DNA of 45,910 bases, from NCBI GenBank assembly GCA_001724265.1, contig MEDY01000243.1:1-45910 (forward strand), written 5' to 3'. A model generated the notes under the pieces. The model worked only from the letters and a program-made list of their open reading frames with translations. It was not told the DNA's origin and ran no database searches. Shown here piece after piece: positions 12,397-40,501 of the stretch (its first letter is position 1; the number at the start of each line of letters is the position of its first letter). The DNA is from Rhizaria sp. SCN 62-66. Its lineage: Eukaryota. A program made the position numbers and the translations under genes.

Positions 12397-12907
12397 CTGG
12401 GTCTGCGGCGCACGCGAAGCGAGGCAAGAGAGGGGGGAAATGATGTGGGTGAGAAATAGCATGAGAGTGAGAGGGTTTCACGCAAAATACGGAAAGAATG
12501 AAGCAACGATCATGTGGGCGCGCCCAGGCAGTGGCGTGGAAGCAAGGCACACACAACGGAGGTCGAACCCAACTCGAGGCCTCGCAGTTAGCATTCCGTA
12601 CAGCGTCTTGCGGCCGTTGTCACGTCAGATATAACGAGTATGCAGTCCATCTACCAGTTGCTCGCAAAATACTATTCACAAATTACGCTCAGACCCGCGC
12701 CTGGGACGCAACAACAGTTCTATTCGCCCGCGCATTCGCGAGTTGACCGCGATGTGAGAAACAAAGAGGACGGATTTTTCGGTCCCCCCGTCTCCAAATT
12801 GCTCACGGTCATTATCGATCGACTCGCTCGCTCGCTCTGGGGACATTTGAGTTTTCATAAATATATCTCTCCTCTGACCGCCAAATCCGCTATCTCCTTT
12901 GAATACA
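12397..12907. promoter_or_regulatory. Probable bidirectional promoter / 5' UTR region between head-to-head RPL35A and RING-H2 genes
   Basis: Divergent start codons lie ~510 bp apart (12396 on -, 12908 on +). Inferred from gene arrangement only; no specific motif identified. Confidence 0.4.
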
Positions 12908-15219
12908 ATGGTACGTCTTCTAATTCCTTTTGTTTACGCAATCTATCCTCCGAAAATCTTCCTCTATCCCTGCTTTCATGGCACGAACAATTCTGCTTTC
13001 TTGAACCGAATCTTCGACTCATGTCCACTTCACCCTGTACCGGCTCTGTTCGCTCTCTTGTTGCGGGCTTCTTGCACGCCCGCGCTGCAGGAGACGGCGA
13101 TGTTTCTGCAGTATCCGCGCGAGAGCATCCGATACTTCCATTCAGTGCTGAGCTACGGCCACGTCTGCGGACCGCTCTACCTCATCAGCTCTCTCGCCAT
13201 CCTCGCCCTCGTCACCGCCGACGCCGCCGCAAACGGCGGCAACTCGGGCGCCAACGCCGATGCCGGAGGTTCCATTTTGGACTCTCTCTTGTCCTCTCTT
13301 GGCGTCGGCGGCCCTGGCGGGTTCGGCGACGGGAGCCTGGGGGACGCGCTGACCTTCCTTTGCGTGCTCTTACGCACGGCCGTCTCTCTGGCGCAGACGC
13401 CCGTGCGCTACGGCATGTCGTTCAAGATCTGGCGCGCCTCGCGCCACGCCACCGACGCCGACGCCGGCGACGCGCTTATCGCCATGAAGAACGGACGCAT
13501 CTGGCGCACCGCCGACCGCGTACGTCATCAACAACACACGAAAATATCGAAACCGTTGATGTTCTGTTAAACTCTTCTCATGCCTTGTCTTAAGTCTCTC
13601 TTCACTTAAACAATATATTGGTGTCTCCCTTTGTGTTTTGTTTTGTTTCTGGCTGATATAACGCGGCAACACAACAGATCGGCCGACTGGTGCAGTCGGC
13701 ACTTCTCGTCTCCGCCGCGCTCGCGCTCTGGCTGCTGCTCTCCCCGGCGCTGAGCTGGCTCATCTCGTGGCTGCCCGCGCCGGTCCCCGCGACCGCCGAC
13801 GCCGTTGCCGCGCTGCTCGCTGCGCTCGCCACTGCCTGCGCGCGCGCCCTCCTAGCGCCCGTAACCGCGCTCGCTTCGCTGCTCTTGCCGCTGCTCCTGC
13901 CTCCAGGGAGCACAGTGCCTCCAGGGAGCGCAGCCGCCACGCTCACGGCAACGTCGGTCGCCAACGCGGCGGCGGCGCTGCTCAAGTCTCCCGTCCTCGC
14001 CCCGTTTTTCACCACCACCACCACCGTTGCTTCCATTACCACTGCCACTGCGACTGCCTCTGCCTCTGCCGTCGTCACCGAGTCCGTCGTGGAGCTGCTG
14101 CCGGCGAGCTCGCTACTGCGGCGCGCGCTGGTGCTGGGGCTCATCGTTGGCGCTACCAACTACGCGGTCTCGCTGACTCTGCTGTGGCGGCTGGTGCTGG
14201 CGCCCGACCAGGAACGCCACGGCGGCCCGCTGCTGCTGACCGGTCGCGCTGTGGCCTCTCGCGCGCAGCTCCGGGAGCACGTGCTCACGGCGCGCACGGG
14301 CGCAATGCCCGCGAGTGTCACGCGTTCTCTCGGCAAGGAGGGCCGCGTCCGCGCCATTGCCATTGAAGGGCTCAGCAACAGCAACGCGAGCGCGAGCACT
14401 GGCACTGGCAACACTCTGGGACTGAGTGCTGGTGCGATGAGGAAGCGCGCGGCACGGCTCGCCCGCGCCGCCGCCGCCGCCGCGGGCAACATCAGCAACA
14501 ACAACAGCAACAGTAATGATTCCTCTCGAGCTCCGACTGCGACTTCGACTTCTGCCAAAGAGGACGAGGCCGCACTGCCGTTTTTGAGCACGGAGGGCGA
14601 CGCGTGCTCGATCTGCTTCGGCGGCTTCGGCTTCGCGGCCTCGGCCTCGCTGCTACGCTGCGGACACCTCTTCCACGCGGCCTGCATTGCACGCTGGCTG
14701 CAGCAGGCGGCGACCTGCCCCGCCTGCCACTATGAGCTGGGCGCGGACTGGGCCGCTGGCGCGCGCGGCCGCCCGCCCTTTGCGGGGGTCGACCCCGTCG
14801 CCGTCGCCGCCGCAGACGCCGCCATCGCGCGCGCTGAGACAGAGGCAGAGGCTGAGGCAGAGGCTGCTGCGAAGGCAGAGGCTGGGGTTGGGCAGAGTAA
14901 GCGTGAGGCCTTCATGGGCTGCGAGTGGCCTGAGGTGCTGGAGATGGCCAATCAGCAGCGGCTGCGGCAATATCAGCAATCACAGTTGCGCCAACAGCAG
15001 CAGCAGCAGCAGCAGCAGGAGCAGGAGCAGTTTGACTGTGAGCACAAGCACGACGGCTGTGACAACAACGACGACGTCAGCGACGACAGTGACAGAGATA
15101 GTGCGAGTGCGAGGACCGAGACTGTGGAGAGTGAGCTGCGCAAGCGTGTCGGTGTCAGGGCTGCGTCTACGGCTGATGCTGTTGCCGTTGCCGTTATCGG
15201 GGGCTTCTCTGCGGAGTGA
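12908..15219 (+). CDS. Transmembrane RING-H2 zinc-finger protein (putative E3 ubiquitin ligase), 3 exons, ~657 aa
   Basis: ATG-only exon 12908..12910, intron 12911..13090 (GTACGT..CAG), exon 13091..13519, intron 13520..13677 (GTACGT..CAG), exon 13678..15219. RING-H2 CSIC-x14-CGHLFHAAC-x10-CPAC at 14605..14727. Several hydrophobic segments lie N-terminal to it. Stop TGA. Confidence 0.85.
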
Positions 15220-19226: not shown

Positions 19227-21963
19227 ATGGATAACCCCGTCGTCATGCAGCGGGGCCAGCAGGAAGCGAGTAGTCTCGTCGGAAAGTCCGATCTCCACCG
19301 CATCCACATCGCTCTCGCTGCCGTCATGAGCCTGTCTGTCGACCCATCCAGTCTGACCAGTCTCAAGAACATATTCGCTTCTTGCTGGGGCCTCTCGGTG
19401 GAAGTGCTGCAAGAGAGCAACGTCCTCGAGTTGCTGCTGCAGTCGCTCCAGCTCGCCGCATCAACATGTAACAGTAACCGTCCCAACGCTGACACTCACG
19501 CAAACGCTCGCATTGGCGCCAGCGCTGCTGCTGGTTTTGACGCAACGGACGCTTTCAACCTCGATGCCGCGGACCGCGTTGAGATTATCGTCGACCTGCT
19601 GCTCCACGTGAGCGTATCCCGCCGGGGCTCAGACTTCCTGCTCCAGTCCCGCGCGCTCGAGCGGCTCACGGCCCTGCTCAGCAGCGGCTGTCTCGCCTCG
19701 AGCGGGCCTCGGGGCGCCAGTAGCGTGCTGGACTTTGTCCGCAGGGCCGTCCGGCTGTTGCCTCCGGAAACAGAGGCCGCCACCAAGCACGCCGCGCTCG
19801 CCAACCTACTCGTCTACTGGCAGCGTGAGCACCACACGCAGCTGCGACTTCTGGAGCAGCGACTGGAGCGGCAACAGCAGCGGCAGCAGCAGCAGCAGGA
19901 AAACGAGGAACGCAAGTTTGCGCAAGAGCTTGAGCAGGAGCTGCAACAGGAGCAGCAGGAGCTCAATGCGCGTCTGATCAAGCGCCACTCCGAGCTTTGT
20001 CGCACAGTGGCCGCGCTGTGCGCTCCCAGCAGCGCGCAGAACGGAGACGGCCACGGCAGCGGCGGCCGCGGCAGCGACGGCCACGGCGGCGGCCACAACA
20101 GCGGGACACTCCCGCGCTATGCTGACGTGCACAGCTTTGTGCCGCTTATGCGCGCAGTGCTGCGGAGTCAGCAAACGCCGGACTCGGTGCGAGATGTCGT
20201 GTATATGTCATTGCTCGCCGTGTTTAAGTGCGGCAGCAGCAGAGGCAGCAGCAGCAGCGGGTACCATAGCAGCGAATCCATTAGCGCCAGCGATGCTTGC
20301 GCCGGTGACCCCAGCGCTGACGACATCAGCGCCGGCGACGTGAGCATCGGTGACAGCATCAGCTGCGGCGGCGACAGGCACAGCTGCAGCAGCGACAGCG
20401 GTAAGGATAGCAACGACAGCAATAGCAGAAGTGACTTCCGCAGCGATATTGCGGACTTCGCAGTCAGCGCCGACTTCGACTCGCTGCTGCTGCGGTCCGA
20501 CAACAACGCCTCGTTCCAGCTGCAGCGGTTCATGGCGCTGATGGATCACGCCACGCTTGCGCGCGCGTTCACGGCGGAGCGTCTGGCGCGCATTCACGCG
20601 CACGCGCGCGCGGCGGGCTTTGCGCAACAGCAACAGAGCGACTTGTACTACTTTGGCGGCTACGCAGGCGCGTTGGCGACGATGACAGCGCATTTCCCCG
20701 CCTTCGGCCGCCAGTTCGCCGCGAGTGAGGGGCTGGCGCAAGTGCTGCGCGACACCGATAGTAAGATCTCGACGATGTACCAGAGAGTCGTGGTGCACGT
20801 GCCGCAGAACACGGCGCACCTGCTTGACGCGCTGCTGTCCGCAAGCGAAGTCGACCATGACGCCGACAAAAACGCAAATAGAAACGCAGACGCAGATGCC
20901 GATTCAAATGCAGTAGCAGACGCAGATCAAGGCTATGATGTGCACAAAGTGATTGCTGCGCCTGTGGCACCTGTGACGCGCATTGTGCGGCAGCTGCTGG
21001 AGGCTGGCGCCGTGGAGTGCTGTTGCACGATGCTGCGCTTTCTCGTGCTGTGGAGCGCTGAAAAGCACAACATGGCGGGACAAATCGCGCGCGGTCAAGA
21101 CGCCGCGGCCACGTTGCTGCGCGTGTTGCGCGCAATGATTGCAAAGGGCGACACTGTCGTTGAGTCTCAAGGCGACACCGCGACGAATGAACTCGCACCA
21201 TCAGACTCTGCCACGCTTGCCACTGGTCGCAACAGCACTGTGAACCCCGTCGCGGCGCGCTTTGTGGCGGCGCGCGGGCCGCAGCTCGTGGAGTTGCTAC
21301 GCTACGCTGACTGCACGCAGGACGGCAACGGCACCGTGCTGGGAGAGCTCACACAGCTGCGCTCCCTATTGGCGCAACTCGGCGTGAGTGACGCTGACAC
21401 TCTTGTGACTAATAGCAATGGCCTTCTCGATAGCGCAGCCACGGACGATGACGTGCGGCGAGCCGTCGCTGAGGCGCGCAAGTGCCCGCAGCCCTCTGTG
21501 CGGTACTGGCGGTGCGTTTTCGGCGCCCATATCACGGCGGGCTTGGCCGCAGACACCACGGATTAGACTGAGCGCCCGCAGCAGCAGCGGCAGCAGCACC
21601 AGATGCAGACGCAGACGTCTGCTCCAGCGGCGGTGCACGCAACGGCGGCGCGGGCGCTGCTGCGGGTGCTGGCGCGCGAGAGCATCCAGGCCTACGCGCG
21701 CGGCGTGCTCGCGGCGCGCGGCGCGTCCGCGGCGGCCGACGTGGTGTTCCGGGCCGAGGTCTACAGCGCGCGCAGCGGGCGCCGCGAGCAGCACCGTCTC
21801 GTGGTGCGGCCGAGCGACGCCGCGGTGCCCAGCCACGCGGCGCACTTCCGCGCCGCCGCCGCGGGCAAGGCGCTGGGGGCCTGCGTCCACCCTCTTGGCT
21901 GTGCACCGCCGGAGGCGTCCTCGTCGCTGGCGCAGTTGCCACTGTTGCCGCGACAGGTGCTAG

Positions 21964-21999
<36 letters not shown>

Positions 22000-22523
22000 C
22001 GTTCGTTGCGTTGTACAGCTGTGGCAGCGGGCGCTGTGGCAGTGATCTCCTCGCATTGCCAGAGGCCGACACCGTGTACGGCGAATACACACACGTACAC
22101 AACACATGTGCGCAGCAACGGCTCAATGACACTGACACTGCTGTCAATACTGCTGCTGTTGACACCAGAGCTGCGTGTTACCCCGTCGGCACAGTGTTGC
22201 TGTCGCCCCGCGCCGTCCCCAGCACGCTGTCCATGTCCAAGCGCAGCGGCGCGCACGACACGCCGTGGTTCATCGTGTTCAAGCCGTGCCCGACTGCGCT
22301 CTTGCGCGGCGCCGTGCCTGTCGGCCGCGTGGTGTCTTGCGTGCCGGGCGCTGTAGTGCCGGGCGCTGTGGCGGGTGCTGAGGCGACGGCGCATGACGGC
22401 GGCGAAAACAACGCGCTCTTGGATGCCGACATGCTGCGGTGCTTAGAGGACATGTGTGCCGCGGAACAGCAGTGCAGCGACACAGAAACACGTTCACTCT
22501 TCACGTTTGACAGCTTCAGATGA
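19227..22523 (+). CDS. ARM-repeat + cyclophilin-like protein, paralogue 2, ~1,098 aa if the internal TAG at 21564-21566 is decoded
   Basis: Track ORFs 19227..21566 and 21603..22523 are in the same frame, separated only by one TAG. The joined protein is collinear with paralogue 1 across the junction and shares DIA(E/D)FA(L/V)SADFD, LRYADC, PSHAAHFR and VFKPCPTALLRGAVPVGRVVSCVPG. Final stop TGA. Confidence 0.75.
21564..21566 (+). other. In-frame TAG inside paralogue 2 (candidate recoded or read-through codon)
   Basis: Context: ACC ACG GAT TAG ACT GAG CGC CCG CAG CAG CAG CGG CAG CAG CAC CAG. The frame continues for ~318 codons encoding the conserved C-terminal domain. Confidence 0.7.
21966..21998 (+). 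repeat. (CAG)11 coding microsatellite (poly-Gln) inside the cyclophilin-like domain of paralogue 2
   Basis: Perfect CAG run, absent from paralogue 1. Confidence 0.9.
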
Positions 22524-23029
22524 GGCGCGCAATGCTTGAAACGACCTATGATACATCAATACAAAGCATAACACAAGATACGTGAAATGGCTTCGCTACT
22601 GATTGGACTATACTGGTTGATTAGTTTAGAGAAGATTTATGTATTGAGTTGATTTTTGTCTGTGAGACTAAAAATGGAGAAGACAGAAGTTTACTTAGTG
22701 TTGTCGTGACGCATCAAATGAGAGAGTGCGCAGCCCTACGTGGGGCGCTTTAGCGGTGCGTGACTTGAGTGACGGGACAAACTAGAGCGCTGTGAGAAAA
22801 CACACAAAAAAAAAGCACAGCTTCCGTAAAAGCCGTGTACTTTAAACATATAAACGTTTTTTGCAATTCAAACACGACGCTGTCTAGATCCCGCCTTTGT
22901 CACGCAGGGCAAGAGAGCGCTCAGAGGTAAGACGGCAGTCAACACTCACCAGACGGCGCCAGGCGCAACACGGGTTTGTTGTTGTTTGCGTCGTTTTACC
23001 GACTACTGCTAGTACGAGCAATCACGCAC

Positions 23030-23992
23030 TTACGCCTTGACGTAGGTGGACATGGCAGCGATACCGCAGAGGTTCTTGCCAGTGGCCATGCGGATGTAGC
23101 CGCCCTCGCCCCAGGAGGTGCCCCAGGAGTTACGGACGATGTAGTAGCCGGCGGCGGTGTCGTAGCCGACAGCGGCGATGCCGTGGTTGAGGGCCTTGCC
23201 GCAGGGGCCGGAGAAGATACCGGAGGAGTAGAACTGGAAGTTGGAGTTGGCCTCAACAGCGACGGAGACGACGGTGGAGGAGATGGCCTTGATGAGGTCA
23301 GCCTCGTCGTTGGCCTTGACGTTGGTGTAGGACTTGATGGTGGCAGCCGCAGTGCACTTGGAGGACTTGCAAGCGGAGCCCTGAGCAACGTAGGGGTAGT
23401 CCTTGGTCTGGCAGAGGCCGCCAGCAGCAATGACGTACTCGAAGGCGTTGGTCATGAGGCCACCCTGGCAGCCGTGGTTGCCGTAGGACGCGGAGCAGTC
23501 AACGAGCTGGGACTCGGAGAGGTCGTAGAGCTTGCCGTTGGCGATCTGGTTGGCACCCTCGATGGCGGCGTTGGCGGAGAAAGCCCAGCAGGAGCCGCAC
23601 TGGCCCTGGTTCTTCATGGCGTTGACAGCGCCCTCCTCGCGCCAGTCCTTCTTGTCGGCGTTGGCGGCGGGGAGGTTGCCGGTGTTGAGGGAGCGGGCGT
23701 AGTCAGCCTTGATGGGCTTGAGGCCGAGCTTGGAGGAGAACTCCTCGAAGGTGAGGTCGGCGAACTCGTTGACGGCCATCTGGTAGGTCACATCGGGCTT
23801 AGCGTTGTGGGCGATGATGGTGTTGAGGTTGGCCTTGAAGGTGGAGTACTTGGAGAAGAACGAGTTGGAAGAGTACTCCTTGTTGTAGGTGGACACGAAG
23901 CGGGTGAAGAGGAACTGAGTCTGGTCCTCGGTGAGGGGAGCAGCAGTAGCGACGGCGACGGAAGCAGCAAGGATGGCGATCTTGGCGGCCAT
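23030..23992 (-). CDS. Papain-family (C1A) cysteine protease, cathepsin L-like preproprotein, ~320 aa
   Basis: Signal peptide MAAKIAILAASVAVATA (ATG 23992). I29-type prodomain (AVNEFADLT). Catalytic motifs QGQCGSCWAFS (Cys), LNHGIAAVGY (His) and YYIVRNSWG (Asn). Strong codon bias, no intron in the CDS. Stop TAA. Confidence 0.96.
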   Translation of the reverse strand: MAAKIAILAASVAVATAAPLTEDQTQFLFTRFVSTYNKEYSSNSFFSKYSTFKANLNTIIAHNAKPDVTYQMAVNEFADLTFEEFSSKLGLKPIKADYARSLNTGNLPAANADKKDWREEGAVNAMKNQGQCGSCWAFSANAAIEGANQIANGKLYDLSESQLVDCSASYGNHGCQGGLMTNAFEYVIAAGGLCQTKDYPYVAQGSACKSSKCTAAATIKSYTNVKANDEADLIKAISSTVVSVAVEANSNFQFYSSGIFSGPCGKALNHGIAAVGYDTAAGYYIVRNSWGTSWGEGGYIRMATGKNLCGIAAMSTYVKA

Positions 23993-25353
23993 TTTTAGCA
24001 CAGACTGTGTTGTGAAAGAGAGAGGCGGAGATTGATAAGCGACGGGCATAAGATCAAAAGGAAGGATTTGTGAGAGAAAGTCAGCAATAAAAAGAAGCAT
24101 TTCGTCAAAGGCACTTTACTAAGTGATGGAAAAAGTAAAACAATCTACAATACAAGGAACTGTAACGCTTTGCCTTGCATTTTCATGAGAAGCATATGGT
24201 GCAAGGGATGCGGCGATGACGACAGAGATACATTCTGCCGTTCGTTCCGAGCCCGATACAGGGCACAAAACGCGCAGTGAGGCACAAACAACTCTGAATC
24301 AAGATAGAACAGAGATGGTGTGATCATAGCAGCGAAGTATTACCCGGTAACGCGCACAGGAAGAGGGTGTTTGTGTTCGGAAACAAAAGCGGCGAGCGAC
24401 GTCGCTTGCTCCTACGAAACCCCATCGAACTTTGGAGACACGATTTCAGGCACACAAAACGCATTTGTTCAGCACACAAAAAAGCTTGAAGAACATTTTG
24501 GAGGACCACGTGCGCTATGAATACAAATTCAACACCTGTAACCAGCGTGAAGCGCTTAATCATTCAAAGTTCATCAACCCCCTTGAGAGCTACTCTCTGT
24601 CCGCTCGAAGGTGCGGCTAATCTTTCTTGACGCGGCCACAGTCCGTCGGTCCGTCGACGTCGACCTGCCTGCACTCAGGCTGAAGGAACCCGAGGAGAGA
24701 TTGCGTGTTTTGACATGCATAATCAACCTGGATTGCCTTGATATTTTGTTTTGTGGCCAAAAAGAATGCATTGTGCGGTGGCAATAAAAAATACTTGTGT
24801 TGCTTCCGTCTGTGGATTGAAAAATAGAGTCTTTTGGGAAAAGGTAAATTCAAAGGAGCGCGGTTCCTTAAGAAAACACTTGATATATCGCGACATACGC
24901 AAGATCTCAAAAATAAAAAGATGTTTTAACATTGCAAAATGCACGGGCTACCCTGCAATGCAGGTTAAATTGATGTGCCTTTCATATCTTTTCAGAAATC
25001 ATTCATGCGAAGCTATAATGATGTTCGCAAGAGCGACGTAGACGCAACTACTACTAGGACTGCACGCGACTACCACAAGTTCAAACTCATGTAAAAATCA
25101 CATGAGTGTACAGAAAATCAACATATGTATTCTATTAAAGAGCTTTTTTTCTCATATCATCAATGGTCTCGAGCATCTCCTCACTCGAACAAACCCTCCC
25201 GTTCTTACCACAAGCAAAATGCTGGTCCAGATATTTTACTGATGAGGACTCTGAAACACGATGACTTCACTGGCACCACATGGCTTCGCATAATACGCGT
25301 GATATATCCCCCCTGAAACACTCTCGTCCTATTCAAACAAGCGGTGTTGACTC

Positions 25354-27942: not shown

Positions 27943-28913
27943 TGTTGTGTGATGTTATAGCTTCAATGAGCGCGTGTGAAGTGTGTTTCTGTGTGGACTA
28001 CAACTCTGAAGCGAAGGCGCGCGCGTTGTGCGTGTGCTTTAGTGTACGAAGTCAGGAACCAGCTCTCTGACGCGGATGCAGTAGTAGCAGGTGTAACAAA
28101 GCGTTAAAAGTTGAAGTGGTAGCGCAGGCTCGTGTTCTCAACAACAAACAACAGCAACACAGGAGCAGTCGCGAAAGATCACGGGTGCGTGCACAGCTAA
28201 AGCGCGAACGAAGAGAGACGACTGGAAGAGGATAACAAGAGACGGGAAAGACAAAGTGAGCGCGCAAGCAAAGGAAAGCATAGCGTATGCAGCGGAATAG
28301 CAGTGATAGACGTACACGCAACGACTGCGGGGCAGGCGGTCGCTAGCAAGGAGCAGCGAAGACTAGCGCGGGAGCTGTGCGATGCTGAGTGGTGGCGGTA
28401 AGAAAGAGGCTGCAGAGGGGAACAAATACAGTGAAACACAAAAATAAGATTTGATTAGGTATAGAAGCATGTAGTTAACCAGCGTTAAAGTGTCAATACT
28501 CTCATAACGAGTTCAGGTATGCGTGGGGAGAAAGGACGAATTCAAACTTGGAGGCGCTCGGTGTGTGGAGGGCGCGCAGAATCGGACAAGAGTGATGCGA
28601 GATAACGCGTTCGACAGTTGAAATAGCATTTTACATCCAATCACAAATATGTGTCTGAATAATCATAGTTAAATTTTAGCTCCAGATAGCGATCACAATG
28701 CCGTTTACCACGAGTCTATTACAATGCGTCTCAACCGAGTGCTCTCGCTTGCTTTTGGTTTGACCGAAAGCCCATCTTCCACCAGTTTCAAGCGTCACCT
28801 ATTTTATATGTAAGAACAATACGAGCCTTCTAAGATATAATTGTAACTTTTTATTAACACATGTTGCGTTCGTCTTCTTAGGCGTTGTTCTAGGTCTTCA
28901 TATCCTCGGATTA

Positions 28914-30008
28914 ATGCAGAAGCCTGGAAACGGCCCCAAGCGGCCCCCTCTGCTGGCCGCCGCTCTCTTCGCCGCAGCTGCTCCAGCCGCGCCCCACGAC
29001 GGTTCCGATGTTGACTGTGACAGCGATGACGACGGCTTGCGGACTCCCTACGACTTGAGCTCCTCTTGCGACTCGTCACGCTTCGCTACCCCTGATCCCG
29101 AGGCTGCCGCTGCAGCTGCTGCTGCAGCTGCTGCCGCTGCCTCGGCGGCTGCAACATCAACACAATCAGCTGCAGAGACCGCAGTCAATGCCTCTACTGT
29201 TCCTGTGACTGATATCAAGTTCGCAACTGCAAGCAGCAGCATCTTCAGTCCCGACCACAGCGATCACGACGAGGACGACGGTCTCGCCGGCATCAGCAAC
29301 TACTACGAAGACAAGCATAACAACAGCAAGATCACTGCTCCTGCTGTTGCTGCGACCCCGACTGCGACTACGACGAGCAGCGCCTTAATCGCCGGCAGCA
29401 GTCACAAGGAGGAGGACCTGGAGGAGTTTCTCCGCGACTACGGCGGCGGCGACGACGACGACGACGACGAGTATCTGAACGAGTTGCACGCGATGAATGC
29501 GGGCCTGGTGTTTGTCTCACAGCCGCAGGCCCCTGTGCACAGTCACGCCCGCAATCACAGTGACAGCTGGAGCGACAGCAATCACAACCACGACAGTGAC
29601 GCTGATGATGGCAGCGGTGTTGATGACAAGGATCATGGTGACGATGAGGAAGAAGAAGAAGAAGAGGAGGAGGAACAACAGCCAAAGCTCAGCACCAACA
29701 CTGGCAGCGGCAGCACTACAGCCCCAGCCAGTGACCATGACCGTGACCATGTGGATGGCAGTGACCGTGAGCCCAGCGAGACCGCCAGTGACGGCGAGCC
29801 TGACTCTCTGGACGCTCTGGACGCTCAGGACACTCAGGACGCTCTGGATGCGCTGAGCGCTTTGGGCGTTTTGGGGGAGCCGGTGGAGGACGCCGAGGCC
29901 GCCGCGGCGGGCATTGAGCGCGTGCTGCCGCTGTGGCGCATCTTCGAAGAGTCGGACGGCTCTGGTGCTGAAGACTCCAGTCAGAACAACAACCACCACA
30001 ACGACAGC

Positions 30009-30081
<73 letters not shown>

Positions 30082-30389
30082 GTGTCAAGAGTAAGAGCAA
30101 GAGTGCTGAGTTTGGCGATCGCAGTGACAGTGAGTTTGAGTACAACAGTGGCAGCGACGGTGACGACGGTGACGGCGACACTGCCAGCGCAATCAACAGC
30201 AAGGAGACTGGTGTGAAGAGTAAAGCGAAGACGCGTGCCAGCACGTATGACGCCGAGTTCTTCGGGACTTCGGACGACGATGCTGATGATGACGCTGGCG
30301 GTGACGACTTAGATGAGGACTTGGGCAAAGTCCTTGAAAACGACAAGCAATACGCCAAGTGGAAGCAAATGTTGCGTCACCTGCGCTAA
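28914..30389 (+). CDS. Acidic, low-complexity (Asp/Glu/Asn/Ala-rich) hypothetical protein, 491 aa
   Basis: Single ATG-initiated ORF between AT-rich spacers, ending TAA TAA. Short ordered-looking islands (LEEFLRDY, IERVLPLWRIFEES, KQYAKWKQMLRHLR). No family recognised; an upstream exon cannot be excluded. Confidence 0.7.
30009..30080 (+). repeat. (AAC)24 coding microsatellite (poly-Asn)
   Basis: Perfect 72-bp AAC run, in frame within 28914..30389. Confidence 0.95.
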
Positions 30390-30794
30390 TAAGCTTCACA
30401 AGCAACAAGCGACCATCTGGTCTCTCTGACGATACTTAATGATGACTTGATACTTAGACTAACCCGTACTCAAATGAAACTTAGAAACTTGATCGTTGTT
30501 CGCTTCGTGCGCAACTCACTGCATGGATTGATGTTGATGAATACTAATACAAAGCAAATGTTACTTCACTTCTCGCGTTATTAATATTAAGTAATAAGAG
30601 TTGTTGTGACAATGCATCATCAGCAGCAAAGTGAGGAGCGGATACGGCACAAATACTGTGCTACGTGTACGCATAGCACATCAATGGCACCTCGGAGTAA
30701 TATTAAAGTCTTACGGGCACTGCGGGTGAGCGCGGGGAATCGCGCGGGGATCCAAAAAGGTAAGTGCGCGGCATAGTGCGGCGCGGGGCTAAAC

Positions 30795-30802
30795 AAAAAA
30801 AA
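30795..30802 (-). terminator. RNA polymerase III oligo-T terminator of tRNA-Asn
   Basis: T8 on the - strand, starting 2 nt after the tRNA discriminator base. Confidence 0.75.
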
Positions 30803-30804
30803 TA

Positions 30805-30878
30805 CGCTTCTGGCTGGGCTCGAACCAGCGACCTTGCGGTTAACAGCCGCACGCTACTACCAACTGAGCCACAGAAGC
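30805..30878 (-). tRNA. tRNA-Asn-GTT: tRNA-Asn (anticodon GTT), intronless
   Basis: Minus strand reads GCTTCTG TG GCTC AGTTGGTAG TAGC G TGCGG CT-GTT-AA CCGCA AGGTC GCTGG TTCGAGC CCAGC CAGAAGC G: a full cloverleaf with A and B boxes and no encoded CCA. Confidence 0.97.
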
Positions 30879-31386
30879 ATCTACTTAGATTTCCTAGTTA
30901 TAACTATCAAATGTAAGTATTTGGATGTGCCGCGGTCGAAATTTTATATATCAATATCAAATAAAAACAACAAGGTGTTTAGCTTTAGAATAGTTTCGTA
31001 TGTAAACAATATTAGATAAAAACAATAAACCTAAAAAGCCTATGTGTCATAATTAGCATCGATATATTCAGGGATTTTTAAGTGTGCAATATAAAAAAAG
31101 AAAAAAATGTTCATCGTAATCATTGATCATCAAGTCCAGTTAAGCTAGCCCAGTCACGTTGGATATCTGTAAACCTAAGATTTAGTTCAAATTCGATTAT
31201 GGGGAGATCTTTGTTTGTTTACATCAGCGTATGTATTGTTTGATTCTATATATCGCATCATTCTGATTGAATGACCAGCATTTTCATTCCTCATCACTGT
31301 CACAGTCACAATTTTGTTGCTCACAGTCACAACAAATAAGCTTAATATATTCCACTTGCTCACAGTCAATTTTCACGGTTTCTTCC

Positions 31387-32997
31387 TCAGGGGCCGCCGA
31401 CGGTCCAGCCGAAGGCGAGCGCGGCGCCGTCCCTGGCGGCCTCGAGGCTCTCCAGCTTGTCGCCGAACCCGAACGCGCTGCCGGGCGCCGCCGAGGGGGC
31501 CAGGTGCGCTTTGGGCCGGCCCGCGAGGTGGTTGTTGTTGACGACGCCCGTGCGCTTGCAGACCTCGTCCAGCAGGCGGCCCACGGTCCAGCGCTTGTCG
31601 GCCCAGACCACCGCGCGCAGCCCCGCGCGCACAAGCGCGGGCGGCAGCCGCACAGTGCCTGTGACCGCGGCGGGCGCCGTCGCGGCCGTGGGCAGCGCGG
31701 CGGCGGATGGGAAGCGGATCACGAGGCACACGCGCGACGCGATGGGGATGGCGCTGTCACCCACGGCCTCCTGCTGCAGCTTCTGCAGTGCGGAGCCCGT
31801 CGCGCGCGCCCCGAAGCGGCCCTCGGGCGCCGGCAGGTACGACACAGGCTCCGCGGGCGCCGCCATCGAAGTCGCAGTGGCAGTGGCTGTGGCAGCGGGG
31901 GATAGAGCGGGCGGCAAGCCGGGCGACGGCGAAGGGGAGATCGCGGGCGACATAGCCGGAGACCTGCCTGAGGCCGGAGACAGCAAGTGCGGCGGCGTCC
32001 GCGAAGCAGAAGCAGCGAGGCTCTGACCGGGAGCGGAGAGAATCGGGCGGCTTAGGTTCGGCACTGAGTACACTGGCGGCGCCGCGCTCGCAGTAGTTGC
32101 GGCCGCAGCCGGAGCATTCGTCGCGCTCGTGGGGGGAGCGGGGCCGTGCGCCACACTCGCACTGGCACTAGCGTTGCGATGCTGTTGCTGCTGTTGTTTC
32201 GCTTGGATTTCGCTCTGCCTAGCCTCGCGCTTAATGCGCAGCTTCTCAAGCAGCGCCTGCGAAGCTGACTTGATCGTGCCAAAGAGGCCTCCCTTGCTAT
32301 CCTCAGCGCCTGCCCCTGCGCCAGCATTGGCAGCGGCAGCGGCAGCGGCGCCGGCCTTGCGGTTGGCGACGAGCGCCGCGCGCGCGTCCCGCGCCCGCTG
32401 CGCGTGGGCCGACGCGGCCTGGTCGCAGTGATGATCGTCGGGGAAGCGGTGCGACAGACAGTAGTTGCCAAAGCACTTGGGGCACTGGATCACCGAGAGC
32501 TTGTCGCGGTTGGCGCAGGAGCCCGCGTCGCAGTGCCAGGCCTGCCGCAGCGCGCGGCGTTGCTCATCGGAGAGCGCGAGCAGGTGCTCTTTGCAGCCCG
32601 ACTGGATGTGGCGGTCCACGAACTCGTCCTTGGAGCCGTCGCGCGGCACGCGCACAAACTGCGCGCACACGGGACAGCGCGGCATCGAGTTGACGGTGGA
32701 GATGTCCTCGACGCAGGCGTGGTGTGTGAGCCCGAAGTGGTCCAGACAGTAGTATTTGTCGCACTTGTAGCAGTGGTGCGGCAGAAAGTCCAGCTGCTTG
32801 CATTCGGGGTCCGCGCAATGGCGGCCCACTTCGATCAAACCCTCGCCAGACTGCGCGCGCGCAAGCAGGTCCACGGACACGGGCGCTGCGGGCGCCTTGC
32901 GCGGGTCTGAGCCGTCGGGGTTGATGTTGAACTTGAAACCCGCGGATGGGTCGTCGTCGTCCAGCGGAGATTTCTCTTTGCCTTTGTAAAAAGCCAT
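31387..32997 (-). CDS. AN1-type zinc-finger protein (AN1 - C2HC - AN1 - linker - ZFAND1/Cuz1-like ubiquitin-like domain), ~536 aa
   Basis: ATG 32997. AN1: GRHCADPECKQLDFLPHHCYKCDKYYCLDHFGLTHHAC. C2HC: PRCPVC..VDRHIQSGC. Second AN1: CDAGSC..CPKCFGNYCLSHRFPDDHHC. The C-terminal ALQKLQQEAVGDSAIPIASRV..DKRWTVGRLLD..NNN resembles the ZFAND1 UBL region. Stop TGA. Confidence 0.88.
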   Translation of the reverse strand: MAFYKGKEKSPLDDDDPSAGFKFNINPDGSDPRKAPAAPVSVDLLARAQSGEGLIEVGRHCADPECKQLDFLPHHCYKCDKYYCLDHFGLTHHACVEDISTVNSMPRCPVCAQFVRVPRDGSKDEFVDRHIQSGCKEHLLALSDEQRRALRQAWHCDAGSCANRDKLSVIQCPKCFGNYCLSHRFPDDHHCDQAASAHAQRARDARAALVANRKAGAAAAAAANAGAGAGAEDSKGGLFGTIKSASQALLEKLRIKREARQSEIQAKQQQQQHRNASASASVAHGPAPPTSATNAPAAAATTASAAPPVYSVPNLSRPILSAPGQSLAASASRTPPHLLSPASGRSPAMSPAISPSPSPGLPPALSPAATATATATSMAAPAEPVSYLPAPEGRFGARATGSALQKLQQEAVGDSAIPIASRVCLVIRFPSAAALPTAATAPAAVTGTVRLPPALVRAGLRAVVWADKRWTVGRLLDEVCKRTGVVNNNHLAGRPKAHLAPSAAPGSAFGFGDKLESLEAARDGAALAFGWTVGGP

Positions 32998-33505
32998 AGA
33001 ACTATTGTGGAGGAAAGAAGACAAGAGAATGAAATGTTTAATGTTCGTTCACGTGTGGCATATGCGTGGTATTGCTTAACAGCTTTGTTGTGAGGCTGTG
33101 GAAACGCTGATGTGGAAGTAAGGACTGGAGCGGTTTTGACCGTTCACTCGAAATGCCGAAAAAGTTGCATAGACGCACTTTACAAGCGCCAATAAAAACA
33201 AAATTTTAAGAAAATAATATAAAATAAACTTTAAACACAATGGCGTATGATTGATGGATCTCTACGATAAAGATGCCTGGTATTGCTCATTTTAATTTGT
33301 TGCTGCGACCCCCTTGACTGAGGGTCACCACAAACGGGAAATCGATCCTTCTGGTCGAGTTCTTTTTCGGTTTCAAGTTACAGCGGTGTAATAACAGTCA
33401 TAAAAGGAATGTCTATCGTGAATCAACGTATTTTATTGTCTATATATCGCATTTTAAGTATATTTTAAGCTATTTAACAATGTATCACTGACATATCCAT
33501 CCAAT

Positions 33506-36500
33506 TCATATGTGATTTGTCGAGGCATCTGATTTGTCGCACACGACCCACAGTCCTTTGACCATCCCCAGGGCATCCAGCGTCTTGGTCTTGACCTTAG
33601 CGCCCTCGCTCTCGCCCTCTGCCTCAGCGCCCTCAGCAGGCGGGAGGTCGTAGTAGTCTTTCTTGACGCCGGTGCCGCCGAAGCCGTTGCGGCGGTACAT
33701 GCGCTGCGACGCCTCGTTGTTCGTCGCGGTGTCCAGAGTCAGCGTCAGCGTCAGAGACGGAGCCAGAACAGTTGTTGTTTTGCTCACGGCAGCAGCGTCA
33801 GCGTCAGAGCGCGCGCATGCGGGACTTGAATTGTGCAGCTCAACACTGAGCGCTTCATCTTCACTGTCATCTCCTTCGCGTTCATTCTGGTAATTCTTCA
33901 CAGCAGCAGCAGCAGCAGCAGCGTCACCGAGCGGCTCATACGCAAACTGCGGCACCAGCGGCCACACGGGCTGCCGCCACAGCTCAGACACACTGCTACT
34001 CGACTCTGAACCCTTAGACTGAGTGCACTTAGATCGAGTGCACTTGGGCTGCGGACCGGCGCGCTCCCAGACGGGCTGCCACCACCACAGCGCAGCATGC
34101 TCACGCAAGTCCCACAGCAGCGGAAGCGCGCTGCGCGTGCACAGCAGCAGCCACGCCTCCGCCACGAGAGAAGTATCACGCTCAGTCTCACCCTCACATT
34201 CAGTCTTACTCTCAGTCTCAGCTTGAGCATCATTCGACTCACTGATGTGCATGCCAGTCTTATTGTGGTAATGGCCAGTCGCCGCGGCCGCGTGAGATAT
34301 CGCACGGCGCGCCTCGGCGGCGGCAAGCGGGCCCCAGGCGCGGCGCATCGCGGCCGCGACGGCCTCGGCCCAGAGCGCGCAGTGAACGCCGCGCGCGCGG
34401 AGGAAGTGGCCCGGCTCGCGCGCCCGCAGCAGCGACGACAAATCCCATACAGTCGTCGCTTTATCGTTCTCTCGCTCTGCCGCTGAGTCAGTCGCTGTCT
34501 CTAGCTTTGTCAAAGCAGACTTAGACTCGCTTCCTGAGCACCGAGTGAGCTGTTTCTGTTCCTGTTCCTATTTCTGTTGCTGTTTCTGTTGCTGTTGCTG
34601 TTGTTGTGTGGGTGTCGCTCCGCAGGTGAGATGGAGCATGAACGCGCCGACGCCGCGGCGCTGCCACTCTGGCGCGACGCCGAACACGCAGAGATACGGC
34701 TGCGGCGGCTCAGTCGGCGGGGCTGGGACCAGGCCTAGCATGGTTGCGGTGGCGGAGGCCAGCGTGGCCACGGACGAGGCCAGTGCAGACACGGCGGACA
34801 CAGCGCGGCCCCATAGTGACAAAGCGGGGGACGCAGTCACCGCGGTGGGTTGTTGCAGTTGTTGTTGCAGAGATTGTTGTTCGTTCATATCGACAAAGGG
34901 GGCAATGGCATCCAGTGAACAGACTAAATCAGCACGATTGGCTGAGAAATAGTCCAAAAACGCGCCGTGCTGCGTTTGTCCTTCTTCCACAATCTCGCTC
35001 CTGCTCAGGGCCATCGCCCGCCGCAGCCGCATAAACCACTCACCAGGCTCCGTTCCAGACACAGACGCAGATAGCGACGCAGAAGCAGTTGTAGAGTGTT
35101 CGCTAGAGAGCCTAGATTGGCTCTGAGAATGCTTATCACAGGCTGCTGCGCTTCCTGTCACTGTCGCTGCTAGAGTCACAGCGCCGGTGCGCCGCCGGTG
35201 CGGCAGCGACTGCGCCCTGGGCGCCAGCGCGCGGCGGGCGGCGGCGAGCGCGGCGGCGCGCGGGCGTGAGTGGCGCAGCGGCGGCGCGTACGCAAACAGG
35301 CGCCGGGCGGGGGCGTGGCGCGGGAAGAGCAGCGGGAAACACTGCGCGCCCTTGCTCGATAATAGCAACGGCGACGACGACACTGGCGCTTGCGCTGAGG
35401 CTGAGGCTGAATCGGAGTTAGAGTCGGAGTCAGAGTTGGAGTTAAAGTTGGGCTCAGAGGGTTCAGAGCTGCTGTTTGTGGTGGCAAACAAGCTTGAGCT
35501 CGAGCTTGTGTTATTGTGGCTGTCAAATGTAAGGGGAGTCGTGGGAATGTAAGGGGCCGGCACGGCTTCGTTCAGCACCGGCTTCATACGGGCGACTGAA
35601 AAGGCAATGACGCTCTCTTGTCCGTCTTCCGGTGCTGAGGTCTTTATAATACTTAGGCCGGAGTCGCAGGTACTTAGATCAAGCGCGGCGTCGAGGTCTT
35701 GCTGCAGGACGACGTCGTTGAACGTCACAACAGGAGCCGTCGTCGCGGTGTTGCTATTGCCGCCGCCGCTGTTGCTCGGGTTACAACGGCCGTACACGTG
35801 TGTGCCGCGATACAGCTGCGACGACCGTGGTGTTGGTGTTGCAGCAGCTGTTGTAGCAGCAGTTGCAGCGAGGTTGTCAGTCACTGAAGTAGTCGTAGTC
35901 GTTGTTGTTGTTGTTGATGTTGCCAGGTGCCAACAGTCGCCGTAGCACTCGTACAGCAACGCTTGCGGTGGCGCGGTGGTGCCGGCAGCAGAAAAACTCG
36001 TAGTATCAGTGCCAGTCGCAGAGCGAAAGATGCATGGTGAGGCCGATGCAGAGGCAGAAGGAGTGATTTCGTGCCAGTGGCGGCTAAATGGGCAAAAAAG
36101 GGTCCCAGCAGCAGCCTCCTCGTCATCAACCTCAGTCTCAGTCACAGCATTAGCGGTGAGTCGGCGGCGCAGCGGCGTCCAGAGTGCGCGCGCACAGCGT
36201 GCCGGGGCAAGCCCATGCCGCGCAGCGCCGCGGGCAAGCGCGGCAAGCAGCGCGGCGCCGGGGTCATGGCCGGGCGCGGGCGTAGCGACGAGGAGGTAGG
36301 ACGAGAACTCGTCCTGGGTGAGCAGCGCAGGGTAGTATTCGGCGTCGTATTTGACCGGGAAGAGCGCGTCCTGTAGCGGCAGTTTTGAGATATAAGACAG
36401 ATTAAAGAATAAGGTGTCTCATGGTATGCGCAAGATATGAATAAAGACGTATTGTACAAGGTATAGCTTTGCAGAGATGATGGGTGGGAACGTACGTGGA

Positions 36501-36588
36501 GCGATTGCAAAGGATTTAGGTCGCGCGGTTGTACCATACGGAGTTTGACAAACCGAACCCCATTTAGTGGAGAGGAAGTTCTGCTCAT
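33506..36588 (-). CDS. GNAT N-acetyltransferase (Naa50/Naa60-like) expanded by large insertions, 2 exons, ~985 aa if the internal TAG at 34570-34568 is decoded
   Basis: Exon 36588..36496, phase-0 intron 36495..36371 (GTACGT..CAG), exon 36370..33506. N-terminal LRMVQPRDLNPLQSLHDALFPVKYDAEYY; beta3 VIAFSVARM; acetyl-CoA motif A YLCVFGVAPEWQRRGVG (~34640-34700). After the TAG come motif B LTLDTATNNEASQRMYRRNGF..KKDYY and LDALGM (~33570-33750). Stop TGA. Confidence 0.8.
34568..34570 (-). other. In-frame TAG inside the GNAT gene (candidate recoded or read-through codon)
   Basis: Minus strand reads CAA CAG CAA CAG CAA CAG AAA CAG CAA CAG AAA TAG GAA CAG GAA CAG AAA CAG. The TAG occupies a CAG slot of an (NAA CAG)n repeat, between GNAT motifs A and B. 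Confidence 0.75.
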
Positions 36589-37142
36589 CAAAAGCGCCAG
36601 ATAGAAGTCAATATACTATTTTACGGACCTTACACGGCGCGCGCCATGTCGGAAATCGTGGGCCACAAGCGCGTTGCTGTAGGCTGTGGTTCGCGAAAAA
36701 AGCGGGCAAGCAGTGGGGCCGGAGAGCCATCAAGATTTTTACATTGACCAACTGAAGTAATCTATGAGTATAACGGACTTCAAGTGGTGTTATTGTTGTG
36801 TCACAAGCTGTTTATATCGTTATTTGTTTTTGAAATTTGGTCACACGTTGTTATTTTTGCTGTGCACGTGGTTGCCGCAATCGCTCTCCAATCACGATCA
36901 AGGACGACGCACCCACTTCTAATTCAGCGTTATTCTCGCGTGTACCAACAATAACTTGGCGTGATCGCTGCACGAGACGGCGAAAAAGTGCAGTTTAAAT
37001 TGGCACAAAATGGATTCACCCCACATGACTGCGATCTCGCAGCTGTTTATCACACCCGAACTTTGGTAGTTCCTGCCCCTCCATGCTTTTCTTGATTTCA
37101 CTGTTGGTGCTCACGAAGTTTCAACCCCCGCCATTTGTACAG

Positions 37143-39510
37143 ATGCGTGCCCCCGTCCGCGCCCTGTGCGTTGCCGCCTCGGCCCTTCTTCTTTGCTCCT
37201 CGCTGGCCTCCGCCGCCGAGACGGAGACGTTCGTGATTCCCTCCACCTTCCCGGCCACGATCCCGGCTGGCGCGCCCGCGCCGTCGTTCCGCGCCGTCAT
37301 GGGCCCCGACTTCGTCTTCGACCCTGCCGCGGCGTACAGGCTGTCCTTCTGCGATAGCGCTGTCCCGGCTGCCGACACGACCGTGACGGCTGCCTACGTC
37401 CACGCCTCTCTCGAGCAGTTCGCTTTCTCCGGCGAGAACAACAACTGCACGGCCAAGCTCGCCGCCGCGGGCTCGACCACGCCCGTCGAGCTCGGCGCCG
37501 TCGCCTTTACCAACGAGTTCCCCGACACCGTCGTCACGCAGTTCCTGCCCACCTTCTACAACGCGCGCGCCGCGACGGCCGCCACGATCTTCGTCGTCTC
37601 GGGCACCGGCCTCGACGTCGTCAAGAAGGTCGTGGTGCACACCGTGGCGCCCGAGCTCTCGTCGCTCTTGCGCTATGCCACCAGCTACGTCTACAACGAC
37701 GACGGCTCCGTCTCCCCGGCCTCATCCCCCGAGTTCGCCCTGGGCGAGGGCGACGACGTCTCCGCCGAGTGCACGAAGCTCATCGCCACGGCCACCACCG
37801 TCGCCTGCACGCTCCCGTCCTTCCCTGCGACCGCCCAGGTGCCGCGTGTGCTCACGGTCACTTACCTGGACGCCGCGAACGCGCCCGTGGCAGAGCACAC
37901 GATCGAGGCGACCCCGGCCGACGTGCCCGTCAACTACGCGCCCTCGGCCGTGGCGCCCGCCGTGCTGCCCACCGGCGTCACCACCAAGCTCACCGTTACC
38001 TTTCCCAAGCCCGTGCCCGCGACTTACCCCTGGTCTGCCGTCTTCGTCAACTCCGCGACCATGCTGCCCGTCATCGGCGCCACCGTGTCGCCCCTTATCT
38101 TCGCCGCGGACCGCCTCTCGGCGACCGTGGAGGTCACTGTGCCCGCCGACGCCACCGTCACCGGCAAGTACGCACTGTCGCTGGGCCAGGCCGCACTGGT
38201 CTCCGCGCCCACGGCGTACTCGTACATCAACGAGCGCGACGAGGAGGTTTTTGTCGTTGACGGCGCGGACTCGGCCAAGGCCGCGAAGCAGTCTCTGTTC
38301 AACACGGCCGTCGTGGCGCCCAGCTCCTTCGAGCTCACCGTCTCGCAGTCCGTGGTGACCATCGGCGCCGTCTTCCCGGGCGCCGTGCACGTCAACACGC
38401 TCTCGCTCGACGGCACGCACCTTCGCATCGACCTCGCGTCGGGCACCTTCCCCGCCGGCGGCGCCGTTACCGTCAACGGCAAGTACGCCGCCGTGGTCTC
38501 GGCCAGCCCGCTCATGGTGACCCTCAAGGGCGTCAAGCTCGAGGCGGGCCCCGTCACTGTGGCGCTTAAGGACTCGCTCAAGGACGACGCCAAGACCGTC
38601 GCCGAGCTCGCTGAGGCGTTCACAGTGTACGGCGCCGCTGCGGACAAGGTTTACCTGGCGCACGAGTACGCCATTGCGCCGCTCGCCGTCGCCGTGGGCG
38701 CCACCACCAACGTTATCTTCACCATGACGAACCCCGAGAAGAAGGCCGTGACCGTCGACGTCGACGCGACGACCGGCATCGTGCCCGACACCAAGCACTC
38801 CGCGGGCTCCACTTACGTCACCGTGCCCTTCAAGAACACCGGCAAGGAGATGTTCAAGAGCGTCAACGTCAAGTTCCACGTCGGCGACACCGTGCTGCCC
38901 GCCGTGATGCAGTACGTGCCGCAGCCTGTGCCCAAGAGCGTCACTCCCGCCAAGATCGACATCAAGGTACGTCCGCAACAACGTTTCTATGATGTTTCCG
39001 TCATAAGATCGATAATATATATATATCTATTTTTTTGTTATCACAACTCTCACTTTTCGTGCTTTTTGTTTTGTTTTGTTCACACTATAGTCCAAGACCG
39101 CGACCAAGGTGACCGTGGGCCTCGGCGCCGACTACACTGGCACGCTGCCGCTCGTGATCACGCTCTCCGACGCCAACGCCAAGGTCACCGACTCGGCCTT
39201 CGACGCCAAGACCCACGCCGTGACCGCGAACGTAGACTGCACCACCTGCACCATCGGCTCCAAGGTCCTCACCGTGACCTTTGCCTACTCAGCCGGCGTC
39301 CACGACACGTCCACGACCGTGGAGGTGGTCAACACCAAGTCCGGCGGCGGCGACGACTCGAACGTGTGGTACTGGGTGCTCGCTATCGTGCTCACTGCCG
39401 CGCTGGTCGTCGGCGCTTACTTTGGCTACAAGGTCTACAAGCGCCGCCAGGTCCGCAACACCATGCTCGCGCAGTCGCTCAACGAGGACTCGCCCTACCG
39501 CATGCTCTAA
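37143..39510 (+). CDS. Type I membrane protein with a beta-rich (IPT/TIG- or Ig-like) ectodomain, 2 exons, ~747 aa
   Basis: Signal peptide MRAPVRALCVAASALLLCSSLASA. Exon 37143..38966, phase-0 intron 38967..39090 (GTACGT..TAG), exon 39091..39510. TIG-like strings (FVVSGTGLD..CTKLIATATTVACTLPS), TM helix VWYWVLAIVLTAALVVGAYFGY, and a short tail KVYKRR...SPYRML. Stop TAA. Confidence 0.85.
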
Positions 39511-40501
39511 GCGCGAAGCAGAAAGATACTGACCTCCGCTTTGTGCTGCGACGTGCCGCGACAGTCTAGCTCGGCATCTCTGTGCTTTTCTTGCTGTCTC
39601 AGCCTGATTAACTTTTGTTGAAACAAATTTGACTTTGTTTCATTTGGCTGCGTCTTAAACAGCTCACAATGTGTGTACCTCGTTTATGCAAGACTCTGTG
39701 CTAACTAAGTGTTCATAGCTCCATGAGCGAACTTGTAAACAACGATGTAACACATTTTCAGTTTCCTACGCCGCTAAATTCAAACACAACTGTCGCGCGC
39801 TCGCTGCGCTTGTGTCTCTCCTTTCTTGCTTGACACGACACCCGCCACCTTAACCAATATTTTGCGTCGACTTTTTGTTTTGTTGCTGTCGTTTGGGTTT
39901 TAGATATCAACGAACCCGTTATCTTTTGGATTTGCTTTCCTTTGTTTTTCTCCATGGGATCTCATCGTCACATCATTGAGTGTTTGTCACCCGACCATGC
40001 GTGACTGCTCACATTTATAAGCTCTTGCGTTTACCACTTACGAGTAGAGTCTTTTTCAAACACTCACATTTTATGCATGTTTTACAGCCGATGACCATCC
40101 ATACAGTCTGTTTATTTTGAATCCATTATCATCGATCCCCGCTTTGACTATGTTTATTATCCTTTTCAAGTTATCGTGACTCTGTCTGGATTTGGTCCCA
40201 CAGTCGCGCCAGCTCGGTCTCTCTGCAGAGAGCCAGCAAAGGACGATGACGAGGCTGATTTAGCAAGTCGGATGCGTGCTCATGCCATCGTCATAATAGT
40301 TCTTCACAAACGATTCCGTATTGTCATGATTGTGAATATGCTGTAAATATACTTTTATTTCTCCAGACCATTTCTTTGCTCTCGAACTCATCGTGATACG
40401 ATCCAACTCCGCCCCCCTTGTCCTGGCCCTCTGCTAGCCCTCCTTTCCTCGAGCCAACAGATACTTTCTTTCTACAAATTGGACGGCTTTCCGCGTGATC
40501 A

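Follow-up and report, generated by a model that had tools for sequence, protein, structure and literature searches.

An in-frame TAG in a putative NAT-type acetyltransferase gene and possible reuse of UAG as a rare glutamine codon in a GC-rich eukaryote of wastewater reactors

A stretch of 45,910 nucleotides of contig MEDY01000243.1 (positions 1 to 45,910, hereafter the window), deposited under Rhizaria sp. SCN 62-66 (assembly GCA_001724265.1), was analysed, and our subject is a gene of the GNAT acetyltransferase family on its minus strand, in which a single reading frame is interrupted by one TAG codon. The window is eukaryotic nuclear DNA with coding stretches of 60-75% GC and AT-richer spacers between them, and its genes include those for COX15, a RING finger protein, a ZFAND1-like AN1 zinc finger protein, gamma-tubulin, a cathepsin-L-like protease, and tRNA-Asn. 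The NAT-type GNAT gene (36588..33506, minus strand) has two exons. Exon 1 (36496..36588) comprises 31 codons (MSRTSSPLNGVRFVKLRMVQPRDLNPLQSLH), with an in-frame stop upstream of its ATG; it supplies the first part of the NAT fold and ends at a GTACGT donor. The intron that follows (36371..36495) is 125 nucleotides (nt) long, runs from GTACGT to CTACAG in phase 0 with a GC fraction of 0.40, and is of the same type as the two introns of COX15. Exon 2 (33506..36370) opens with DALFPVKYDAEYY and is 955 codons long; codon 601 is the in-frame TAG, and the closing TGA (33506..33508) is the only stop after the TAG in this frame. The gene extends past the coordinates given for it in the original prediction, a first reading of this DNA, and exon 1 and the intron are additions to that reading.

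The TAG occupies 34568..34570 (CTA on the plus strand) and, as the original prediction had held, lies downstream of motif A of the acetyltransferase fold (YLCVFGVAPEWQRRGVG, 34696..34646) and exactly on a CAG slot of a short repeat. This repeat is a hexamer array (34550..34606, minus strand) of the form CAA + (VAA CAG)9 that encodes a Q/K/E linker in which rare codons are used; 8 of the 9 units have CAG in the CAG slot, and the remaining one has TAG. Tandem Repeats Finder reports it as a period-6 array at 34549-34607 with 9.8 copies and 83% matches, and the codon string around the stop is (CAA CAG)3 (AAA CAG)(CAA CAG)(AAA TAG)(GAA CAG)2 (AAA CAG). Past the linker, the same frame continues into a first conserved block (SLLRAREPGHFLRARGVHCALWAEAVAAAMRRAW, 34334..34435), found by alignment with a relative described below, and then into motif B and the terminal strands (LTLDTATNNEASQRMYRRNGF..KKDYY..DALGM, 33563..33742). 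Counted from the TAG, LTLDTATNNEASQRMYRRNGF (33742..33680) lies at 276 codons, KKDYY at 302 and DALGM at 331, in line with the roughly 270-330 stop-free codons first read from the sequence. When codon usage was scored in sliding windows of 60 codons, the frame of the gene was the best in 47 of 50, the exceptions being one at 34710 and two that extend past the stop, and the scores downstream of the TAG equalled or exceeded those upstream.

At the level of motifs, the protein can be assigned to the GNAT family. The Q/RxxGxG/A signature of motif A is present as QRRGVGA inside YLCVFGVAPEWQRRGVGAFML, and this segment covers positions 50-81 of the Pfam Acetyltransf_1 profile and aligns with the motif A segments of 4pv6, 2cnm, and 9mto and of archaeal Ard1 and RimI chains. 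Motif B (LDTATNNEASQRMYRRNGF..KKDYY) aligns with residues ~98-143 of Ard1/RimI chains at E values of 0.012-2.1. By score, the assignment appears only marginal: the read-through protein reaches 20.7-20.8 bits against Acetyltransf_1 at a cut-off of 20.7, with no single stretch significant alone, whereas the part before the TAG alone reaches 11.9 bits and the relative L001 18.1 bits. When a profile of the two orthologs was compared with the PDB, all seven matches at E <= 10 were NAT or RimI chains (E 0.012-2.1, best 0.012). Motif B is kept in L001 and falls on the same polypeptide as motif A only if the TAG is read. The TAG appears, with statistically weak support, to split one GNAT domain between motif A and motif B, as had been proposed from the first reading.

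The protein resembles NAT-type GNATs (Naa50/Naa10/Ard1 and RimI) in its Q/RxxGxG/A motif A and in the form of motif B, N..A...Y...GF followed by YY, and its N-terminal FPVxY segment is one that we take to be NAT-like. It differs from them in its spacing, with ~480 residues between the N-terminal helices and motif A and ~300 between motifs A and B, against 2-12 residues between the two motifs in the three alignments shown with solved enzymes; solved NATs total 147-294 residues, compared with roughly 985 in the read-through protein. A single-sequence AlphaFold2 model of exon 2 is too low in confidence to use (mean predicted local distance difference test score 36.5, predicted template modelling score 0.30).

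A search of 1.84 billion representative proteins with the GNAT sequence gave four matches, among which P0005 is the sole true homolog; two are the window's own fragments, and P0004 was disregarded as a low-complexity repeat protein. Among proteins close in length to the read-through GNAT no homolog turned up, its only relatives being shorter. P0006, a cluster mate of P0005 that is also carried by an 8.8-kb contig, led to the locus L001, which is 39% identical to the GNAT. In L001, motif A (HLCMFGTAPRWHRCGLG), a Gly/Ala-rich linker of its own, motif B, and the C-terminus follow one another in a single open frame of 339 codons with a TAA end, and because this frame is open through the linker, the linker is, by this comparison, translated sequence in the family. 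The TAG of the window lies 14 codons past a conserved LTCGA and ~45 codons ahead of the next conserved block. Downstream of it, 30 of 46 positions are identical to L001 in the block after the linker (columns 86-131), and 30 of 65 from motif B to the C-terminus, with ratios of nonsynonymous to synonymous substitution (dN/dS) of ~0.32 and ~0.5, where dS is saturated; the motif A block upstream has 15 of 25 identical positions and a dN/dS of ~0.35. The region after the TAG thus looks as conserved as the region before it.

The ~300-residue insertion between motifs A and B spans 33743-34645 (minus strand) in the window and 1021-1760 in L001. Parts of it are kept in L001, namely LRARGVH..LWAEAVA.AMRRAW, a Trp-rich stretch (AWLL..LPLL..LRE.A.LW.W.P), and PVWP, and only the first conserved block is predicted to be helical, at moderate confidence, in the AlphaFold2 model of exon 2. 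The contig that carries L001 (2 kb) looks chimeric: positions 1-850 carry bacterial-looking open reading frames (ORFs), which code for a small protein and for the C-terminal part of an ABC-transporter ATPase, and the last 1.1 kb (900-2070) holds the eukaryotic GNAT tail with an AT-rich 3' flank.

The GNAT TAG itself is real and is reproducible across independent assemblies. Contigs from four runs were aligned to positions 19700-39699, and one contig (record 22) of X4, which with X1-X3 makes up the DNA runs that contain the window, spans 34466-35282 with no differing letters and no gaps relative to the window, the TAG included; among the variants listed for any of the four runs, none falls at 34568-34570. 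In the public protein collection, the GNAT is present only as TAG-bounded fragments: three forms ending in '...KQQQK' at the TAG come from 2, 3, and 1 contigs (6 in total) of ENA and Logan assemblies, and the 335-residue tail comes from 5. In the contig alignments, joints and loose ends mostly had short sides and fell at repeats that were GC-rich or of the CAG type; these were taken as matches to other organisms.

Removal of the TAG by splicing appears unlikely, because the last GT upstream lies 73 nt away inside a helix, the GC content around the TAG is unlike that of an intron, and L001 is continuous. The upstream GT, at -73, is formed by the Ala-Phe codons of GAFML in the helix after motif A, and the next one follows at +29; this bears out the earlier observation that there is no GT between the end of that helix and the TAG. 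The GC fraction around the TAG is 0.51-0.64 vs 0.40 in the gene's own intron, and no GTAYG donor was found ahead of the TAG in this gene. By comparison, the three introns read in the window, one in the GNAT gene and two of GT..AG type in COX15, have GTAYG donors and are AT-rich; introns in the window are 125-225 nt long.

A second in-frame TAG (21564..21566, plus strand; GAT TAG ACT) was found within another gene at 19227..22523, and it is the sole stop in the window that a test of the 50 codons on each side flags as coding on both sides. The two TAG-bounded fragments of this gene were recovered from 5 contigs each. The gene has seven environmental relatives, and three of them (P0130, P0131, and P0133), which lie on contigs of 72-118 kb, cross the site of the TAG as single ORFs; in BLASTP, one high-scoring segment pair joins residues 405-1085 of the second gene to residues 14-565 of P0130 (E 7e-55). 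The best conserved domain of the family lies downstream of the TAG, at the C-terminus, where HAAHFRAAA, YPVGTVLMYP, and DTPWFIVFKPCP..LLRGAVPVGRVVSC are conserved with the seven relatives. No Pfam match was found for this family.

The use of stop codons across the window points in the same direction. None of 12 gene ends is a TAG, 6 being TAA and 6 TGA, which in this small sample (n = 12) would have a chance of 0.07-0.014 if TAG ended 20-30% of genes. The 14 coding segments, which total 10,950 codons, contain two in-frame TAG codons and no TAA or TGA, and 2 of these segments carry an in-frame TAG in a gene with continuous orthologs. If counted as Gln, TAG would make up ~0.4% of the Gln codons. 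A CAR-YYA type 3' motif is a stimulatory context for readthrough; the contexts here are AAA TAG GAA CAG in the GNAT gene and GAT TAG ACT GAG in the second gene, and neither of the two TAGs has a known readthrough-stimulating context, there being no Q-stop-Q flanks, no C after the stop, and no such 3' motif. The share of TAA among the gene ends (6 vs 6 TGA) seems high given third codon positions of ~65-80% GC.

On balance, and at somewhat better than even confidence, we lean towards the reading that UAG has been lost as a terminator in this organism and serves as a rare sense codon read as Gln, where we infer both the reading by ribosomes and the identity of the residue. The tRNA responsible would have the anticodon CUA or would be a near-cognate tRNA-Gln that works efficiently, and only UAA and UGA would end genes. 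TAA ends 6 of the 12 genes and is never found in frame, so UAA is still a stop, and the code would be of the UAG-only type. The GNAT gene would then be intact and would encode a NAT-type N-acetyltransferase of roughly 985 residues, its fold interrupted by long insertions, and the TAG would represent a synonymous CAG-to-TAG transition in the Gln/Lys/Glu linker just past motif A. The residue is probably Gln, judging from the repeat slot and from precedent. The original prediction had left a choice between decoding, most simply as Gln, and very recent inactivation. Decoding has become the better supported of the two, given a reproducible TAG, unlikely splicing, a continuous L001, conservation downstream, a second gene, and no TAG among the 12 gene ends, while the Gln part of the claim, argued from the slot and from precedent, and the genome-wide status of TAG fall short of proof. 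We would put at even chances the wider proposal of a GC-rich, aerobic, non-ciliate lineage of wastewater reactors, unrecognised before, that no longer ends genes at UAG and is in the early stages of re-using it for Gln. The early stage would be suggested by TAGs that are so far only in variable linkers and that may stem from CAG-to-TAG transitions.

It is possible, though unlikely, that UAG is a sense codon for another amino acid (e.g., Leu, Glu, Tyr, Lys, or Trp) and that the variable linker tolerates the change from CAG to TAG as a substitution. Two points speak for Gln: apart from the TAG, the CAG slot does not vary in the array (8 of 9 units), and a single anticodon change in tRNA-Gln(CUG) would be enough for it to read UAG. 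On the other side, changes from Q to K and from Q to E are already present in the partner slot of the repeat (CAA, AAA, GAA), neither TAG falls on a conserved column, and UAG-to-Leu codes are known in a rhizarian and in ciliates (PMC5304391, PMC11687900). We likewise regard as improbable a standard code in which a CAG-to-TAG nonsense mutation was recently fixed in a Gln-rich tract, with readthrough of a few per cent by near-cognate tRNA-Gln being sufficient. This explanation draws on Saccharomyces cerevisiae, where, according to a preprint, Gln-context readthrough of premature stops under the standard code reaches 2-8% at laboratory alleles, and Q-stop-Q flanks and a C at +4 are the stimulatory criteria (PMC13192750). 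Both cases involve a stop derived from a Gln codon in a Gln-rich low-complexity tract, here a Q/K/E repeat, the yeast inserts Gln via a near-cognate tRNA and keeps function, and both TAGs of the window lie in linkers. Against this, the GNAT TAG has Lys and Glu flanks (AAA/GAA) rather than Q-stop-Q and is followed by G, not C, the GNAT protein is merely 4.6% Gln, and the second TAG is flanked by Asp and Thr. Moreover, two such mutations in ~13 genes together with no TAG among 12 ends would be unexpected under the standard code.

A young pseudogene, or a truncated protein that lacks motif B, whose downstream frame has yet to decay would explain why a single stop stands in an otherwise faultless frame, and dN/dS measured against a 39%-identical relative cannot date so recent an event. 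We nevertheless consider this quite unlikely, since samples of 2015-2025 from two or more studies other than the possible source show the same TAG, another conserved gene within these 46 kb would likewise need to be a TAG-made young pseudogene, and 10,950 codons contain no disruption by TAA or TGA. Still less probable is a change at the RNA level, through an unconventional intron or U-to-C editing. The organism does splice, with three GT..AG introns read, more in gamma-tubulin and one in the gene at 37083, and no RNA contig across the site is among the pieces listed; on the other side stand the missing GT within 73 nt upstream and GTAYG donor, the GC values given above, an ortholog (L001) that translates the equivalent linker, and a frame that is unchanged across the TAG. 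Finally, that the TAG entered the source contig through faulty sequencing or assembly is scarcely credible, even though short tandem repeats are error-prone, because the contig of X4 is independent and identical across the TAG, and ORF fragments that stop at the TAG or start after it were found in ENA and Logan assemblies, on 6 and 5 contigs, respectively.

A number of points weigh against the reading of UAG as a rare Gln codon. The in-genome tests cover the 46-kb window (45.9 kb), which is a small sample of the organism, and TAG is very rare in it, with 2 codons beside 377 CAG and 105 CAA in the same 10,950. Comparison of the codon in relatives gave continuous ORFs (L001; P0130, P0131, and P0133), but both TAGs lie in linkers of low conservation; there the residue cannot be read off an alignment, and a truncating or leaky mutation would be most easily tolerated. 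The dN/dS values reflect mostly long-term constraint that predates any recent mutation, the Pfam score of the GNAT stands at its cut-off, and in the 50-codon test that flagged the second TAG, the GNAT TAG scored -0.02 upstream and 0.15 downstream and failed to register as coding on both sides. One of the six genes with a TAA end (12640..13593) is weakly supported by codon usage. As for the sequence data, X4 belongs to a 2025 study other than the source and has no recorded library type, the tables of X2 and X3 are identical, possibly one data set, and were counted once, and the contigs that bear the TAG-bounded fragments of both genes may derive from the same few samples. Among the pieces listed, no RNA contig crosses the TAG; a poly(A) metatranscriptome (X7) contains 0.18 of the sampled words, at low depth on the gene. 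No tRNA with anticodon CUA was found within the window, which says little given its size, and eRF1 is not among the window genes. The sole RNA gene, by ARAGORN and Rfam, is a tRNA-Asn(GTT) at 30804-30879 (minus strand).

UAG-only reassignment to Gln (the type of NCBI table 15) is recorded for the fornicate Iotanema spirale, the ciliate Protocruzia tuzeti, and two phyllopharyngean ciliate lineages (PMC11687900, PMC5304391). The window resembles them in its in-frame TAG codons within conserved genes, its use of TAA and TGA as ends, and a codon one transition away from CAG. The window organism is unlike them in its exons of about 60-70% GC, AT-rich introns, and COX15, and TAG is far rarer in it, at 2 of 10,950 codons. 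GC-rich exons, spliceosomal introns, and COX15 do not fit ciliates or an anaerobic fornicate. Reassignment of both UAA and UAG (UAR) to Gln is reported for Amoeboaphelidium protococcarum, ulvophycean green algae, hexamitid diplomonads, oxymonads, and many ciliates (PMC5304391, PMC11687900). These share with the proposed code a nuclear stop-to-Gln reassignment and differ in that TAA ends 6 of 12 genes in the window and is never in frame. In a keyword-level search of open-access literature, UAG reassignment was not found described for any GC-rich eukaryote from wastewater other than a ciliate, which is not proof of absence.

If UAG is indeed read as Gln, gene calling with the standard code would split every TAG-containing gene of this organism, and the two genes considered here are already split in public collections, the GNAT into 438 or 154 + 335 residues and the second gene into 779 + 306. 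UAG-only reassignments would also gain an independent lineage outside ciliates and fornicates, with a GC-rich genome and hence a base composition opposite to that usual with UAR reassignment. In addition, the low usage of TAG could represent a rare natural intermediate of stop-codon capture, on the codon-capture route to a table-15-type code.

The organism's DNA recurs in bioreactor, wastewater, and activated-sludge metagenome runs of several studies, and because it recurs in this way, the data already available should allow its genome, its tRNA set, and its eRF1 to be recovered. The presence of COX15 suggests that it has aerobic mitochondria. The gamma-tubulin gene (25354-28300, minus strand) has at least 5 exons, AT-rich GT..AG introns, a TGA end, and no in-frame TAG, and its product is at most 75% identical to anything found. 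In a gamma-tubulin tree of 42 rows (the window and 41 of the 120 listed matches, chosen as named taxa and the best environmental matches), the window forms a long branch outside the well-supported clades of Viridiplantae, Fungi, and stramenopiles, with no other placement. Cluster look-ups led only to a 'Chlorophyta' cluster for COX15 and to generic clusters for the tubulin. Scans of prokaryote genome contigs for stray contigs of the organism gave nothing useful; L002 is a tubulin-like sequence of 28% identity that belongs to a metagenome-assembled genome of a bacterium.

Several ORFs of the window that end in TAG were examined and set aside as gene ends. The one at 22976..23998 (plus strand) is antisense to the gene of the papain-family (cathepsin-L-like) protease, which lies at 23030-24100 (minus strand), has an I29 propeptide, and ends in TAA. 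The TAG end at 26464 (minus strand) is a read-through into an intron of gamma-tubulin. A third, at 39567-39569 (plus strand) in a table-11 ORF, belongs to the wrong frame after the intron of the gene at 37083; that gene (37083-39510, plus strand) has a 124-nt intron at 38967-39090 and truly ends at a TAA (39508-39510) after a predicted membrane-spanning tail, WYWVLAIVLTAALVVGAYFGY. A scan for adjacent ORFs that could be merged was too noisy to use, as off-frame ORFs merge by chance in GC-rich DNA. The window also holds three very long intron-free ORFs, at 1-4989 (minus strand), 5105-8698 (minus strand), and 40502-45910 (plus strand), of 1663+, 1197, and 1803+ codons; they are rich in low-complexity sequence and have no Pfam domain at E <= 0.001, except for a sub-threshold match to CDC45.

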